A stretch of DNA of 4,049 nt from a plasmid: assembly GCF_054482525.1 (NCBI RefSeq), contig NZ_JBTHVG010000005.1; one strand, 5' to 3'. The notes beneath the pieces are model-generated. The model worked only from the letters and a program-made list of their open reading frames with translations, did not search any database and was not told where the DNA came from. Each line of letters starts with the position of its first letter. Position 1 is the stretch's first letter. Shown piece by piece: positions 127 to 4,049 of this stretch. Both the position numbers and the translations under genes were made by a program.

Positions 127-474
127 CTAATCTGCCATAAGCCTGGATAACAGGGCACGGTGATACTCCGTAATAGCGATCAGCACCTCCGCATACTCCC
201 TGTCCCCGACACGCTTGCCGTCGATAAAGAGTTTTTTCTGTAACGCCCCCAGTCTCATAACTTCTTTCAGTACCCGATCATCAGTCAGTGAGTTAACTTT
301 CTTACCGAGAGCTGCCGCCCGTAAAAAACCGGAAACGGTCTTGCCGCATTCAGCAGCCCTTTTTCTGATTTCCTGGTCTTCTTCTGCCGTCAGACGAACA
401 GGGCGACTGATAGCCCGCCTGCGCGTATTACTTCCACTTCGTTTTGTCATAAAACATGGCTCCGTATCTGACAT
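127..474 (-). CDS. mobC: MobC-family plasmid mobilisation (relaxosome accessory) protein
   Basis: 115-aa ORF whose core (RLTAEEDQEIRKRAAECGKTVSGFLRAAALGKK...) resembles the MobC/MbeC family of small relaxosome proteins. It reads away from the adjacent bom/oriT-like sequence. An alternative start at M9 (ATG at 450) is preceded by GGAG at about 9 nt spacing and may be the true start. Confidence 0.8.
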   Translation of the reverse strand: MSDTEPCFMTKRSGSNTRRRAISRPVRLTAEEDQEIRKRAAECGKTVSGFLRAAALGKKVNSLTDDRVLKEVMRLGALQKKLFIDGKRVGDREYAEVLIAITEYHRALLSRLMAD

Positions 475-560
475 GGGTGTCGGGGCAAAGCCCTGACCAG
501 GGCAATTGTAATAGCGTGCATGTATGCGCGGTATAACAATTGCACATCCTGTCCTGTCAG
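475..560. other. bom/oriT-like transfer origin region (ColE1 type), nick position not determined
   Basis: Begins GGGTGTCGGGGC, which matches my recollection of the pBR322/ColE1 bom region, followed by the hairpin GCCCTG-acc-CAGGGC (~489-502) and the imperfect inverted repeat GCAATTGTAATA...TATAACAATTGC (~502-543). Lies immediately upstream of mobC. By analogy to the ColE1 nic region the nick would fall near 531/532, but this is not verified. Confidence 0.55.
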
Positions 561-733
561 CAAGCTCGAATTACCGACAAAGGCACGGCAGTTTTTTGGC
601 AGTGACAGTGTTGTCTGACAGAAATGCCCGTCAAAAAGCCAAGCGGCAGAATAGCGGCAGCAAAACAGTCGAAAAGTGGTACGCGATATAATCACACAAC
701 GCAGATGACAGACAGAACGGAGAAAACGAAAAG

Positions 734-928
734 ATGAACAAGCAGCAGCAAGCCGTACTCAACATGGCGGGATTCATAAAAAGTCAGAGCCTGACGCTGC
801 TCGAAAAACTGGACGCACTCAATGCCGACGAACAGGCCGCCATGTGTGAGAAACTGCACGAACTCGCAGAAGAACTCCAGAACAGCATACAGACACGCTT
901 TGAAGCGGAAAATCTTACCGGGATATAA
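734..928 (+). CDS. rop: Rop/Rom (RNA one modulator) protein, copy-number control
   Basis: 64-aa ORF MNKQQQAVLNMAGFIKSQSLTLLEKLDALNADEQAAMCEKLHELAEELQ... closely parallels ColE1/pMB1 Rop (recalled as MTKQEKTALNMARFIRSQTLTLLEKLNELDADEQADICESLH...). A GGAG Shine-Dalgarno lies about 8-13 nt upstream of the ATG (acggagaaaacgaaaagATG). Confidence 0.9.
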   Translation: MNKQQQAVLNMAGFIKSQSLTLLEKLDALNADEQAAMCEKLHELAEELQNSIQTRFEAENLTGI

Positions 929-1544
929 CGCATCCGGACAGGATGCAGAACGGCATAGAGGAGCGTAAGGAGAAAATGTCACATAAGGCGCTCTTCCGCT
1001 TCCTCGCTCACTGACTCGCTACGCTCGGTCGTTCGACTGCGGCGAGCGGTGTCAGCTCACTCAAAGGCGGTAATACGGTTATCCACAGAATCGGGGGATA
1101 AAACCGGAAAGAACATGTGAGCAAAAGACAAAGACCCAGAAGAAGGGCGCGCGGGAGGCGTTTTTCCATAGGCTCCGCCCCCCTGACGAGCATCACAAAA
1201 ATCGACGCTCAAGTCAGAGGTGGCGAAACCCGACAGGACTTAAAGATACCAGGCGTTTCCCCCTGGAAGCTCCCTCGTGCGCTCTCCTGTTCCGACCCTG
1301 CCGCTTACCGGATACCTGTCCGCCTTTCTCCCTTCGGGAAGCGTGGCGCTTTCTCATAGCTCACGCTGTTGGTATCTCGGCCCGGTGTAGGTCGTTCGCT
1401 CCAAGCTGGACTGTATGCACGAACCCCCCGTTCAGTCCGACCGCTGCGCCTTATCCGGTAACTATCGACTTGAATCCAAACCGAGAAGACACGACTTATC
1501 GCCACTGGCAGCAGCCACTGGTAACCGAATTAGAGGAGTTAGCC

Positions 1545-1574
1545 TTGAAGTCATGCGCCTGTTAAGGCTAAACT
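1545..1574 (+). promoter_or_regulatory. RNA I promoter (-35 TTGAAG, -10-like TAAACT)
   Basis: TTGAAG at 1545-1550 and TAAACT at 1569-1574, placed as in the pMB1 RNA I promoter relative to the RNA I 5' end. Confidence 0.6.
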
Positions 1575-1580
1575 GAAAGA

Positions 1581-1685
1581 ACAAGTTTTGGTGACTGCGC
1601 TCCTCCAAGCCAGTTACCTCGGCTCAAAGAGTTGGTAGCTCTGAGAACCTTCGAAAAACCGCCCTGCAAGGCGGTTTTTTCGTTT
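1581..1685 (+). ncRNA. RNAI: RNA I antisense copy-number control RNA
   Basis: ACAAGTTTTGGTGACTGCGCTCCTCCAAGCCAGTTACCTCGGCTCAAAGAGTTGGTAGCTCTGAGAACC...GCGGTTTTTTCGTTT parallels ColE1-family RNA I (pMB1: ACAGTATTTGGTATCTGCGCTCTGCTGAAGCCAGTTACCTTCGG...). It ends in a GC hairpin plus T-run. Confidence 0.85.
1656..1685 (+). terminator. RNA I intrinsic terminator (hairpin plus T-run)
   Basis: aaaaaCCGCCctgcaaGGCGGttttttcgttt: GC-rich stem CCGCC/GGCGG followed by six T. Confidence 0.7.
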
Positions 1686-1695
1686 ACACAGCAAG

Positions 1696-1724
1696 AGATT
1701 ACGACGAGATAGAAAGGATCTCAA
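1696..1724 (-). promoter_or_regulatory. RNA II promoter (-35 TTGAGA, -10 TAATCT)
   Basis: Minus strand reads cTTGAGAtcctttctatctcgtcgTAATCTc with a 17-nt spacer, closely matching the pMB1 RNA II promoter. Confidence 0.7.
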
Positions 1725-1763
1725 GTTCTCATATCATAAAAACAAGCTGACACATCCACGATG

Positions 1764-1967
1764 TTATACCTTTTGAATCGCTACAGCTTTAAACCCTTTA
1801 TCTGTTTTTTCTAATTTAAACCTAACTAAAATACCTTTACATATATCGACATCATGCCCTAAAAACAAAAAATCATCATACCGAAAGAAAACATCACGTC
1901 CACGCTCACGCCTTATAAAGCCATACCCTTTAACATGGTCATAAAAATTAACAAATCCATTTTCCAT
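1764..1967 (-). CDS. Cold-shock-domain (CspA-like) small nucleic-acid-binding protein; candidate retron effector/accessory protein
   Basis: Core GFVNFYDHVKGYGFIRRERGRDVFFRYDDF aligns to the CspA fold (GxVKWFNxxKGFGFI...DVFVHF) with RNP1-like KGYGFI and RNP2-like VFFRY. The ATG at 1967 lies 4 nt after the RT stop (TGA 1972-1974) and is preceded by AGGTGA, indicating translational coupling. The longest ORF extends to an upstream ATG at 2021 (85 aa) overlapping the RT 3' end; the true start is uncertain. Confidence 0.8.
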   Translation of the reverse strand: MENGFVNFYDHVKGYGFIRRERGRDVFFRYDDFLFLGHDVDICKGILVRFKLEKTDKGFKAVAIQKV

Positions 1968-1971
1968 ATAA

Positions 1972-3111
1972 TCACCTATCTGGAAGTAATGCCACGAGCT
2001 TACGTCTATATAGTTTTGCAAGATTCTTATTAGTCCGCCCTACTATATCAAAATCATAGAGCATCCTATCTATTTTCCTAATCTGATCATCAGTTAAAGG
2101 CGGCGTAAACTTATTTAGATAGTGCTTAGCCATCAACTTTAATTTAGATATCTTGTAATCATCATAAACTGGCATTATCTCAGAAAGAATCGCCCTCAAT
2201 TCAACCGCCTGGACATGCCCAAGCCTCGACATTTGAGCAACCTTGCCAGAGCATCTATTCCATAAATCATGGTACTCTTTCGTATGACGTTCATAAGCAC
2301 CTTGTTTTTTACATATATAAACTAAGTACCTGATATAACGTCTATTTTCTTTTGTTAACTTAGGAACACCATGCTTTACCCACAACCCAGTGACACTAAG
2401 TTTAGAAGACGAATCTTTTGAGTGCTCTATCGTTGTCTTACTTTCATTTATTGAAAGTCTGTACTGATTCACCATTCCGTGAACGAGTTTTATTACTTTT
2501 GTTTTTTCCTCTGATGAAAGATCCTTATCAGAGGATATAGTAATATCATCTAAAAGCCTTGAATATGAAAGCCCCATAGACTTCAATCTATTATAGAGAT
2601 TATACTCACTATTAAAAAATAAAAGATTTGCAATATAACTAGAACAGCACCCACCCTGAGGGACCTTATTATTCAACGTCACAAGTTCCGTTAAGCATAA
2701 AGAAACATCAGGAGAAAAACGCATTAAATTTTTAAAAATAGAACAAACATCTTTTTTACTAATGCTGGGATAAAAATTGGTGATATCAAGACATATAACT
2801 GTTCTTTTCCTAGTATGAACAGCGGCATTAGATATATAATCGCGACCACTTAACGCCCCATGCAAATAATGAGGGTAATCAATTTTCTCAAAAATCTCTT
2901 TATTTATTTTTTTTTGAATTCCTTTCAAAGATCTCTTGGGTTCAAAAATTTGCCTTTCTTTTTTATTCTTCCCTGTTTCAACCTTAAACTGCTTGTACGA
3001 CATCGATACAGACTTGACTATCCAGTCCAATCTTTTTCTTTCTATGCCTAACATCGCAGATAAAGAATCCAAAGATGCAACAGGAGTTCCATTAAACCTG
3101 GGTTTATTCAT
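1972..3111 (-). CDS. Retron-type reverse transcriptase
   Basis: 379-aa ORF with RT motifs in order: NAxxH-like SNAAVH (res 95-99), motif A CLDITNFYPSI (catalytic D109), motif B VPQGGCCSSYIANLLF, motif C YSRLLDDITIS (D188, D189) and VTG (res 240-242). It aligns motif by motif with retron Ec86 RT as I recall it (IDLEDFFPSL / LPQGAPSSPKLANL / YTRYADDLTLS / RKVTGLVI). The ATG lies 7 nt after the a2 repeat. Confidence 0.9.
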   Translation of the reverse strand: MNKPRFNGTPVASLDSLSAMLGIERKRLDWIVKSVSMSYKQFKVETGKNKKERQIFEPKRSLKGIQKKINKEIFEKIDYPHYLHGALSGRDYISNAAVHTRKRTVICLDITNFYPSISKKDVCSIFKNLMRFSPDVSLCLTELVTLNNKVPQGGCCSSYIANLLFFNSEYNLYNRLKSMGLSYSRLLDDITISSDKDLSSEEKTKVIKLVHGMVNQYRLSINESKTTIEHSKDSSSKLSVTGLWVKHGVPKLTKENRRYIRYLVYICKKQGAYERHTKEYHDLWNRCSGKVAQMSRLGHVQAVELRAILSEIMPVYDDYKISKLKLMAKHYLNKFTPPLTDDQIRKIDRMLYDFDIVGRTNKNLAKLYRRKLVALLPDR

Positions 3112-3118
3112 GATGTTT

Positions 3119-3401
3119 GAGTTAAAAGTCGATTAGTTAAAAAGTTTCGATACGTAATCTATTACTTTAAACATAATCAAGCACATAGAAAACAAAAACT
3201 GTGTTTTTTTCAGTGCCTCCAGAGAGCCAACCTCTCTTTTTTTCTTCATCTGACCGTCTCCAGAACAAGATGAAGAGCTCTTGGTTACGTTAATGTTGAT
3301 GTTGATAATAAACATGATGCAACTCCTATTGGTTATGAAATTTTGCCAGACCAGTAGGAAAGCAAGGAAAAACTCTATTGGCTCTTTGGGACTTTTAACT
3401 C
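3119..3401 (-). ncRNA. Candidate retron msr/msd non-coding RNA bounded by a1/a2 inverted repeats
   Basis: Perfect 12-bp inverted repeat: plus-strand gagttaaaagtc at 3119-3130 and gacttttaactc at 3390-3401. On the minus strand this gives 5'-GAGTTAAAAGTC (a1) ... about 260 nt ... GACTTTTAACTC (a2), then 7 nt, then the RT ATG. Internal hairpins include CTTCATCT-n16-AGATGAAG, AGAGAG-gttgg-CTCTCT and AAAAAC-aca-GTTTTT. Exact msr/msd boundaries and the priming G are not determined. Confidence 0.6.
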
Positions 3402-3684
3402 ACATTGCCAGACAATCGTCGCTATTCTTTTAGTGCTGATACACGCTCAGGGGCGTTCTCACCATTAATTAGCGGCCAGGCCGGTCATGATCTCATGCGA
3501 GATCGCCTTAAAAACAAGGCATCGGTTTCCTTGCGCAACATACACGTAACCATTTGTTAAAGAGCGAGAGCCAGGCGTGGTTCGCCCGCTTCGCTGATTA
3601 TTATAAAGTTTTTTATCTTTCTGTCACCAACAAGAAAGCGCCTTATCCTGCCAGCGATAGGCTAAAAGGTATGCAGCATGAGAT

Positions 3685-3921
3685 TCAAATCAACTCAGCT
3701 ACAAAGGCCATAACAACAATCCCAACCTCAGCATCGGCACTCAGGATAATTTTTGAACTAGCATCTCTTAAATTCTGACCGTCAAAGGTTGCTACTTTTT
3801 TTAAAGAGGCATCCCTTAAAACCTTGCCATCAAAAGTCGCTATTTTTCTCGAAAAGGCATCTCTTAAGGTTTTACCGTCAAACCGAGCAACGGTTTTTAA
3901 GTCATTGTTTTTATTGAAATA
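3685..3921 (-). pseudogene. Open frame encoding 16-aa tandem protein repeats with a hydrophobic C-terminus; no canonical start codon, so a possible decayed gene or non-canonical initiation
   Basis: Minus-strand frame from the TAA at 3922-3924 to the TGA at 3685-3687 translates to YFNKNNDLKTVARFDGKTLRDAFSRKIATFDGKVLRDASLKKVATFDGQNLRDASSKIILSADAEVGIVVMAFVAELI*. Differences between repeat copies are largely synonymous third-position changes (GCT/GCG/GCA, GAC/GAT, GGT/GGC, AGA/AGG, AAA/AAG). No ATG, GTG or TTG precedes the repeats; the nearest ATG (3903-3905) is offset by 1 nt and gives M-T-stop. Confidence 0.3.
3761..3904. repeat. Three tandem, diverged 48-bp direct repeats
   Basis: Units at 3761-3808, 3809-3856 and 3857-3904 each begin GCATC(T/C)CTTAA and share an (A/G)CC(G/A)TCAAA block and a T-run; identity is roughly 65-75%. 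Confidence 0.85.
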
Positions 3922-3955
3922 TTAATTTCTCACCAATAGTAATTTAACCAATTGT

Positions 3956-3985
3956 ATTTACCATAATCCCTTAATTGTACGCACC
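3956..3985 (-). other. cer: cer-type XerC/XerD site-specific recombination core (plasmid multimer resolution site; accessory arm extends toward and past the window end)
   Basis: Minus strand reads GGTGCGTACAA-TTAAGGGA-TTATGGTAAAT, matching the ColE1 cer core (XerC arm, 8-bp central region, XerD arm) as I recall it. Accessory sequences would lie on the XerC side at 3986-4049 and beyond. Confidence 0.8.
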
Positions 3986-4049
3986 GCTGAAACGCGCTGA
4001 ACGCGATTCTGACGCAGACACCGCAAAAAGAGATGTTTTACCCCGGGAA

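Follow-up and report, generated by a model that had tools for sequence, protein, structure and literature searches.

The question raised by this locus is why three tandem 48-bp repeats that look like part of a protein-coding gene lie in a reading frame with no start codon. The repeats are on the minus strand of a plasmid sequence of 4,049 nucleotides (contig NZ_JBTHVG010000005.1, assembly GCF_054482525.1), and this whole stretch is called the window below. The window was 100% identical over its whole length to NZ_JBTHUQ010000006.1, the complete circular plasmid p8GC-4kb of Escherichia coli strain 8GC (mink, China), and in that record the Prokaryotic Genome Annotation Pipeline (PGAP) calls no coding sequence (CDS) over the repeat frame. 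An earlier note on this DNA had suggested a gene recently inactivated by a 1-nt frameshift, non-canonical initiation, or a recoding site. Comparison with related plasmids and chromosomes indicated that the window very probably holds an allele, inactivated not long ago, of a genuine small gene.

Repeat units and their coding signal

Tandem Repeats Finder (TRF) reported a 48-nt period at 3761-3882 (2.5 copies, 72% matches, score 132), and a repeat search gave three in-register 48-nt copies at 3750-3893, which were 67-73% identical. The translated units were KTVARFDGKTLRDAFS, RKIATFDGKVLRDASL, and KKVATFDGQNLRDASS. TRF, the repeat search, and the translation thus agreed with the earlier note that three 48-bp units in one minus-strand frame encode 16-aa repeats. 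The coding features of the repeat frame were as follows.

3754-3897, minus strand: three 48-bp (16-aa) tandem repeats, with units in codon register at 3897-3850, 3849-3802, and 3801-3754
3685-3753, minus strand: degenerate last hairpin KIILSADAEV, then the predicted C-terminal hydrophobic helix GIVVMAFVAELI and the TGA stop at 3687-3685 (from the translation and the AlphaFold2 (AF2) helix)

The differences between units were then sorted by codon position, which gave 10, 14, and 24 at positions 1, 2, and 3, respectively. Nei-Gojobori comparison between units gave proportions of synonymous differences (pS) of 0.57-0.85 and of nonsynonymous differences (pN) of 0.20-0.26, with pN/pS of 0.28-0.37. 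The ratio of about 0.3 was obtained solely in the repeat frame, and the remaining five frames all hit stop codons within the units, which upholds the proposal of selection on a protein rather than a DNA iteron. The synonymous excess was clear, but the statement that the copies differ mostly at synonymous third positions was too strong, as third positions held just half (24) of the differences. Synonymous-biased divergence of the units points to past selection on the protein and is not evidence of present expression; in the window it is probably a relic of that earlier selection.

The minus strand from 3924 to 3685 reads TAA, 78 codons, and TGA. In this interval no ATG, GTG, or TTG was found in the repeat frame 5' of the repeats; the first in-frame start was the ATG of MAFVAELI, 8 codons before the stop, and the ATG at 3905-3903 lay 1 nt out of the repeat frame. 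Translation therefore confirmed that the TAA at 3922-3924 closes the frame, and the window holds no in-frame start followed by an open frame through the repeats.

A single substitution closes the repeat frame

Megablast showed that about 20 plasmid records (PLSDB) and 25 complete E. coli genomes carry the locus, and a "hypothetical protein" was annotated there in every matching record except the window's own. Twenty relatives were retrieved, and their 5' ends and repeat numbers were tabulated (loci and products are cited below by L and P numbers). These relatives were 96-100% identical over the repeat-gene region. The A-tract at codons 6-7 contained five, six, seven, or eight residues among them (A5, A6, A7, or A8), so that the A-run near 3900-3910, flagged earlier as a possible homopolymer error, was polymorphic in length.

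In this tabulation the window copy belonged to the A5 alleles with three repeats, and it had a single substitution of its own, G>T at 3924 (C>A on the plus strand). Four differences separated the window from L001 over 1342-3987, and the one at 3924 was the sole difference within the open reading frame (ORF). Among the 25 complete E. coli genomes with the locus, T at 3924 was present in one record, the window's own, which was also the sole 100% match to the window in this set, and it was found in none of the approximately 20 PLSDB plasmids examined. The elements at the 5' end of the gene, in window numbering, were as follows.

3922-3924, minus strand: TAA created by G>T at 3924; GAA in all relatives, codon 4 of the GTG-started ORF
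3924-3926, minus strand: ATT created by G>T at 3924; ATG in relatives, start of the A6 alleles
3908-3912, minus strand: A5 tract in the window; A6, A7, or A8 in relatives; with A6 the repeats follow the ATG frame, with A5 or A8 the GTG/TTG frame
3930-3934, minus strand: GGTGA motif resembling a Shine-Dalgarno (SD) sequence, 3 nt upstream of the putative ancestral ATG; contains GTG 3933-3931, the start called for P0001 and P0179
3949-3951, minus strand: TTG in the repeat frame, PGAP start of the 88-aa CDS in A5 relatives; annotated in L001, L009, and L019

The earlier note had proposed searching homologous plasmids for an intact version with an in-frame ATG, and such versions were found in L002, L007, L008, L012, L013, and L041; relatives with the ORF intact were 98-100% identical. 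With an A6 tract, the repeats share the frame of the ATG that follows the GGTGA SD sequence; with an A5 tract, they share only that of the GTG/TTG. In the window, G>T at 3924 turns codon 4 of the GTG-started ORF into TAA and also removes the ATG that opens the second frame. With no start codon left in front of the repeats in their frame, p8GC-4kb most likely does not produce the protein.

Of the proposed recent inactivation by a 1-nt frameshift, the inactivation was retained, and the lesion proved to be the nonsense substitution at 3924. The frameshift had been counted from the ATG at 3905-3903; this was the wrong reference point, since the relevant ATG is that at 3926-3924 in relatives and the offset from it is that of A5 versus A6. 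The A5 state, with its 1-nt offset to this ATG, was common to hundreds of contigs with an open frame. Non-canonical initiation and recoding gained no support, as ordinary start codons were present in relatives. The apparent anomaly would thus be removed: the locus would be not a start-less or recoded gene but one that a single base change has knocked out here and that sister plasmids keep intact.

Allele series among relatives

Two start arrangements, 7 nt apart, were found among the relatives. In A6 alleles, the repeats were in frame with the ATG (3926-3924), which lies 3 nt after GGTGA, and the product began with MNISIKNND. In A5 alleles, the ATG frame ended after 9 codons, and the repeats were open from GTG 3933-3931 or TTG 3951-3949; depending on the start chosen by the gene caller, the A5 products had 82 aa (GTG, MRNEYFNKNND...) or 88 aa (TTG). 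The A8 allele (P0002) was back in the GTG frame. Broken alleles were also present, namely L014 (A7) and L018 (A5 plus a further 1-nt deletion). The alleles were distributed by repeat number as follows.

A6, ATG-started, 3 repeats: 80 aa (L013, L041)
A6, ATG-started, 4 repeats: 96 aa (L012, L017)
A6, ATG-started, 5 repeats: 112 aa (L002, L007, L008)
A6, ATG-started, 7 repeats: 144 aa (L011+L010)
A5, 2 repeats: L020
A5, 3 repeats: L001, L009, L019, L042
A5, 4 repeats: L006

Among near-identical plasmids the 48-bp copy number was 2, 3, 4, 5, or 7, always in frame, and it probably shifts by slipped-strand or unequal recombination between units. Both three-repeat states were abundant: A5 products occurred in about 450 contigs, and 346 contigs had the 80-aa product that starts at the ATG. 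A5 and A6 were also found on one haplotype (4051- versus 4052-bp plasmids), and three or more sequence backgrounds carried A5 (L001 type, L006, and L020). This spread of A5 fits either a mutable on/off tract or a repeated, tolerated loss. Only the ATG appears to have a convincing SD sequence, while the GTG and TTG of A5 alleles seem to lack an obvious one; judged by SD spacing, this suggests that A5 alleles are expressed weakly or not at all. From the abundance of A5, the GTG could be a working start.

Mobile elements were also seen at or near the gene. In L021 (CP034256.1, 528-752), an IS26-family (IS15) insertion replaced the 5' end of the gene and gave a chimeric 74-aa CDS. In L015 and L016 (upstream of 668), Tn3 or IS26 had removed the cer side just 5' of intact copies. 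In L008, the E. coli PEC240 chromosome (NZ_CM168014.1), a plasmid segment at 460-3954 lay between two IS26 copies and contained the intact 112-aa repeat gene, a retron reverse transcriptase (RT) and effector, and a replication-initiation gene.

Protein family and predicted fold

The gene encodes a mini-protein of 16-aa repeats followed by a hydrophobic C-terminal segment, with ATG-started A6 products of 80-144 aa. The earlier note had not recognized the repeat and had suggested a hidden Markov model (HMM) or homologue search of the product. The 112-aa allele matched Pfam PF21785 (Bflower_2, clan CL0395) at 19.8 bits (independent E-value 7e-4), a weak score for the plasmid allele itself, and nine of ten aligned homologues matched the same family at E<=1e-3 (best 3.5e-12). 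Enterobacterial homologues from a set of 5.8 billion proteins were 47-55% identical, with the repeat KDDRLRTIATFDGKTL, the tail SIVVLAFAARLF, and precomputed PF21785 matches. A profile of the alignment was also compared with 1.84 billion cluster representatives, which gave 263 clusters (50% identity) at E<=1e-3, mostly of about 94-110 aa.

The fold was predicted with AF2. The model of the 112-aa allele had 12 short strands and a helix at 102-111, with a predicted local distance difference test (pLDDT) value of 90.5 and a predicted template modeling (pTM) score of 0.76. That of the 80-aa allele had 8 strands and a helix at 68-79 (pLDDT 79), and in both models the predicted C-terminal helix covered the hydrophobic tail. 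In Foldseek against AFDB50, the matched proteins had about 110-140 aa, bore the annotations "cell wall-binding" or "MORN repeat variant", and reached template modeling (TM) scores of 0.84-0.92; the best meaningful PDB match by fold was 1zxu, which was weak.

In beta-flowers, hairpin petals numbering 4, 5, or 6 form a shallow barrel of 8, 10, or 12 strands (Durairaj et al., 2023; PMC10584680). Beta-flowers often have a C-terminal hydrophobic helix, which is enclosed by the barrel in many members; their annotations include the "cell wall-binding" and "MORN repeat variant" types, and a Tubby-like relationship is illustrated by 1ZXU (PMC10584680). The HMM match, the homologues, and the predicted fold together identify the repeat gene product as a predicted member of the beta-flower family. 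Each 16-aa unit would form one beta-hairpin petal, and the hydrophobic tail would form the C-terminal helix. Counting terminal half-units, alleles with 3, 4, and 5 repeats would correspond to barrels of 8, 10, and 12 strands, the 4-repeat case being extrapolated.

The repeat protein had no family match in PADLOC, NCBIfam, or PHROGs, where only short, weak, partial matches were obtained, and a sequence profile against the PDB gave nothing meaningful (FliG E = 0.023, ParD E = 0.37). Some sources label the protein "YjbI with pentapeptide repeats" or "pentapeptide repeat-containing". A pentapeptide-repeat protein was considered and rejected, as the period is 16 rather than 5 and there was no Pfam pentapeptide match.

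Plasmid context, cer junction, and retron

Plasmid p8GC-4kb is a ColE1-type replicon, and its minus strand carries retron Se72 (Retron-Sen1, type V). In a scan of the window against Rfam (E<=1), RNAI was the sole match, and there was none within 3685-3921. The other features of the window were as follows.

1583-1683: RNAI (Rfam, 94.6 bits)
734-928: Rop
474-127: MobA-like gene
3956-3985, minus strand: cer-type XerC/XerD core site GGTGCGTACAA-TTAAGGGA-TTATGGTAAAT (exact match, 0 expected by chance)
3600-3627, minus strand: sigma-70 promoter-like site GTGACA-16-TATAAT (11/12 consensus), 3' of the repeat ORF
3118-3402, minus strand: retron Se72 msr-msd region, with a perfect 13-nt inverted repeat (a1 3402-3390 and a2 3130-3118); a neighbor, separate from the repeat gene
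1972-3111, minus strand: retron type V (Se72 / Retron-Sen1) RT (PADLOC RT_V E = 2.6e-127; RefSeq annotation of relatives)
1764-1967, minus strand: retron Se72 cold-shock-domain effector (PADLOC CSD_V 7.4e-25; NCBIfam retron_eff_Se72 85.2 bits, cutoff 82)

The sequence at 3956-3985, which we take to be the ColE1 cer core, was found in 16 retrieved relatives and lies 4 nt upstream of the TTG of the ORF. Generic ColE1 plasmids match the window only as far as about 3940-3950. Since the cer core adjoins the ORF and ColE1 similarity ends there, the repeat gene is the first cargo-side feature after the Xer site. A repeat gene and retron starting at the Xer junction are as expected if cargo were swapped by Xer recombination.

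The RNA fold of the msr-msd region closed on a1/a2 (z = -4.2). The sigma-70 promoter-like site lies about 200 nt upstream of the a1 repeat, is kept in the Klebsiella plasmid, and is likely the retron promoter, judged by its sequence and position. A block of 82-87% similarity with the Klebsiella and Serratia 4261-bp retron plasmids begins at this site. Because the retron has its own promoter-like site and the similarity block begins there, it is a module separate from the repeat gene. The Klebsiella and Serratia 4261-bp plasmids had the same order of cer-like site, repeat ORF, and retron. In L003 (Klebsiella pneumoniae NZ_CP149830.1), tblastn found an unannotated, diverged 48-aa homologue, MSVTIKDDRLRTIATFDGKPLKDDRLRTIANVNGSVGGVVVAFAARLF, with a GTG start at about 3429-3286 on the minus strand. 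It sits between the cer-like site and the retron promoter, so that gene order was kept and DNA sequence was not.

Some further observations were made on the retron. The RT was annotated with 1032 nt (343 aa) in NZ_JBTHUQ010000006.1 versus 1140 nt (379 aa) in relatives, and the full 379-aa ORF is nevertheless present in the window. At 3098, in codon 5 of the RT, the window differs from L001 (Arg versus Lys). The msr-msd region also contains a 60-aa ATG ORF (3133-3315, minus strand), which holds a 9-nt hairpin (3243-3251 / 3268-3276).

Alternative explanations

Several points weigh against the reading that a genuine small gene was recently inactivated here. The gene may already have been silent as an A5 allele before the nonsense change. 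The 19.8 bits of the 112-aa allele are below the PF21785 inclusion level of about 27 bits (PMC10584680). The window repeats read D-A-F-S, D-A-S-L, and D-A-S-S and so lack the [DNEQ]xxG hairpin-tip motif; this motif is termed only semiconserved (PMC10584680), and the distant homologues P0032, P0033, and P0034 carry it (DAHG, DAKG, and EYQG). Finally, T at 3924 is known from one record only and is the sole ORF difference from the closest relatives, as it would be if strain 8GC truly had G at 3924 and its copy were an ordinary A5 three-repeat allele open from the GTG or TTG. Such an assembly or sequencing error is quite unlikely: the change is a substitution in non-repetitive sequence and not a homopolymer-length call, and the remainder of the window's cargo region was clean against relatives. 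Independent disruptions were common in other records (A7, the further 1-nt deletion, and the IS26-family (IS15) insertion at the 5' end), which makes a real knockout unremarkable.

A phase-variable contingency gene is a possibility that we regard as doubtful, although less so than a sequencing error. Changes in the A-tract would put the repeats either in the frame of the SD-ATG or in one with poor initiation, the repeats would vary protein size, and the window would be a fixed "off" state. All four tract lengths were found, A5 and A6 occurred on one haplotype and A5 on at least three backgrounds, two to seven copies were present on near-identical plasmids, and both three-repeat states were abundant; tract and repeat-length polymorphism among close relatives thus does alter the frame or the protein length, as in contingency loci. 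However, 5-6 A residues are short for classical slipped-strand switching, and certain length calls may be homopolymer errors. Two of the three frames are open, so an "off" state is not proven, and the window lesion is an irreversible point mutation and not a tract change. Continued translation of the window copy by a non-canonical route is very improbable. The GGTGA motif is retained 3 nt 5' of the ATT at 3926-3924, and the ATT frame crosses the A5 tract, where tRNA-Lys could slip by a -1 shift on A-AAA-A; readthrough of the TAA or a non-standard start codon would be other routes. Initiation at ATT with a -1 shift would need two inefficient events in series in a frame of just 9 codons before a TAA, and relatives make the same product from standard starts, which gives no hint that recoding has been selected for. 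No conserved stimulatory structure was noticed either, although no search aimed at one was made. We give equally little credence to the idea that the repeats act as DNA or RNA (iterons, Xer accessory-protein sites, or retron non-coding RNA or template) with an incidental ORF. The repeats are indeed flanked by the cer core site and the retron promoter, and a start-less repeat ORF beside an RT superficially resembles template-encoded repeat ORFs, of which DRT2/neo is an example. Against this, the synonymous bias is confined to one frame, homologues with 47-55% amino acid identity keep the peptide repeat and helix though their DNA diverges, and homologues are also found without a retron or cer site. 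The retron template ends at a1/a2 (3402-3118), well downstream of the repeats, and ColE1-type replication (RNAI 1583-1683) requires no iterons. A DRT2/neo-like template-encoded ORF was rejected as a candidate, given that the RT is that of a type V retron, the template is within a1/a2, and relatives have ordinary starts and stops. Iterons or DNA-binding repeats were rejected on the codon-position statistics and ColE1-type replication; conservation at the DNA level without a frame signature was not seen, and the protein repeat is kept where the DNA is not. The preferred reading remains that of a real small gene inactivated in the window by the substitution at 3924.

Neighborhoods of homologues

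The genes next to homologues of the repeat gene were also investigated. In the 4773-bp Klebsiella ColRNAI plasmids (L004 1710-2000 and 2535-3425), the gene beside the homologue encoded a radical-SAM protein and partially matched viperin (pVip). In L022, L023, L028, and L029 (about 6001-6195), it was directly 3' of the type I restriction-modification (R-M) gene hsdR and beside a TacA/TacT-like pair, and in L024-L027 (about 6001-6507) it was about 1.2 kb from Bunzi BnzA/BnzB (E about 1e-200). A distant homologue in L030 (3894-4187) followed two KAP-NTPase genes with PifA-, QatA-, and PDC-S20-like matches. Close homologues were thus repeatedly beside defense systems (retron, type I R-M, Bunzi, and the viperin-like gene), a suggestive pattern that may serve as a lead. 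Other distant members had housekeeping-looking neighborhoods (L035 and L031) or, in L037, an AAA_16 NTPase and an integrase with no PADLOC match. Because the contexts of distant members are mixed, the defense association is not generalizable beyond the enterobacterial branch.

In L022, a sequence ending ...GGTTCGATTCCGAGTCCGGGCACCA was seen at about 6560-6600, some 400 nt downstream of the chromosomal homologue. Its sequence resembles that of a tRNA gene at the 3' end, and the site could be a remnant of an island attachment site.

By analogy with its fold clan and from these neighborhoods, the likeliest class of role for the protein would be that of a small accessory in mobile cargo near defense genes, either associated with lipids or membranes or binding to proteins. 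A more specific proposal, which is speculative and probably incorrect, is that the enterobacterial beta-flower branch is a hypervariable small accessory gene of mobile defense cargo. Repeat number would set 4-, 5-, 6-, and higher-fold barrels, and the A-tract would switch the frame; the gene would lie at the edge of cassettes (past the cer Xer site on ColE1 plasmids, or where a type I R-M island terminates) and could modulate or protect the neighboring system or the carrier. If this were true, the frequent knockouts, that of the window included, would reflect a cost-benefit trade-off and not neutral decay.

Significance

The window copy would be a pseudogenized allele of a catalogued but unstudied family. 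The plasmid family provides a natural series of 2-, 3-, 4-, 5-, and 7-repeat alleles, which is a ready test of how a repeat fold tolerates changes in symmetry. The gene is misannotated in many records, with a TTG start or a "pentapeptide repeat" label, or is missed, as in the Klebsiella plasmids. The homologues next to four different defense systems, together with the gene at the cer junction, offer a lead on the exchange of defense cargo by small plasmids.

Comparison with known systems

Retron Se72 is an experimentally validated defense system that responds to RecBCD inhibition (10.1101/2022.08.27.505566), and Se72 / Retron-Sen1 has been described as a three-part system without a repeat gene (PMC7736814; 10.1101/2022.08.27.505566). 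Its parts are the msr-msd, the RT, and the cold-shock-domain effector, and the repeat gene is their immediate same-strand upstream neighbor. The repeat ORF lies outside the retron's block of high similarity between E. coli and Klebsiella, and its homologues occur beside other systems without a retron; in these comparisons, which were no systematic survey of type V loci, it did not behave as a component of the type V retron.

The repeat protein is like pentapeptide-repeat proteins in that it is small, repetitive, bacterial, and rich in F, D, G, and L. However, pentapeptide-repeat proteins form a right-handed quadrilateral beta-helix, whereas a hairpin barrel is predicted here. Neisseria and Haemophilus, for example, have phase-variable contingency genes that combine homopolymeric tracts with tandem repeats in frame. 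As in those genes, a 5'-proximal homopolymer sets the frame and in-frame coding repeats vary between close isolates, but the tract here is just 5-8 nt and two of the three frames are open. In contrast to contingency surface antigens, the product would be a plasmid-borne, small cytoplasmic or membrane-associated mini-protein.

Beta-flowers are a bacterial family of about 95-140 aa (PMC10584680). Compared with typical members, the repeats of the plasmid protein are unusually alike and their copy number is polymorphic (2-7) among near-identical plasmids, and, unlike beta-flower genes in general, the window copy is very probably non-functional. The plasmid protein nevertheless resembles beta-flowers in its short hairpin repeats, its predicted shallow barrel of 8 or 12 strands, its C-terminal hydrophobic helix, its size, and its bacterial origin.

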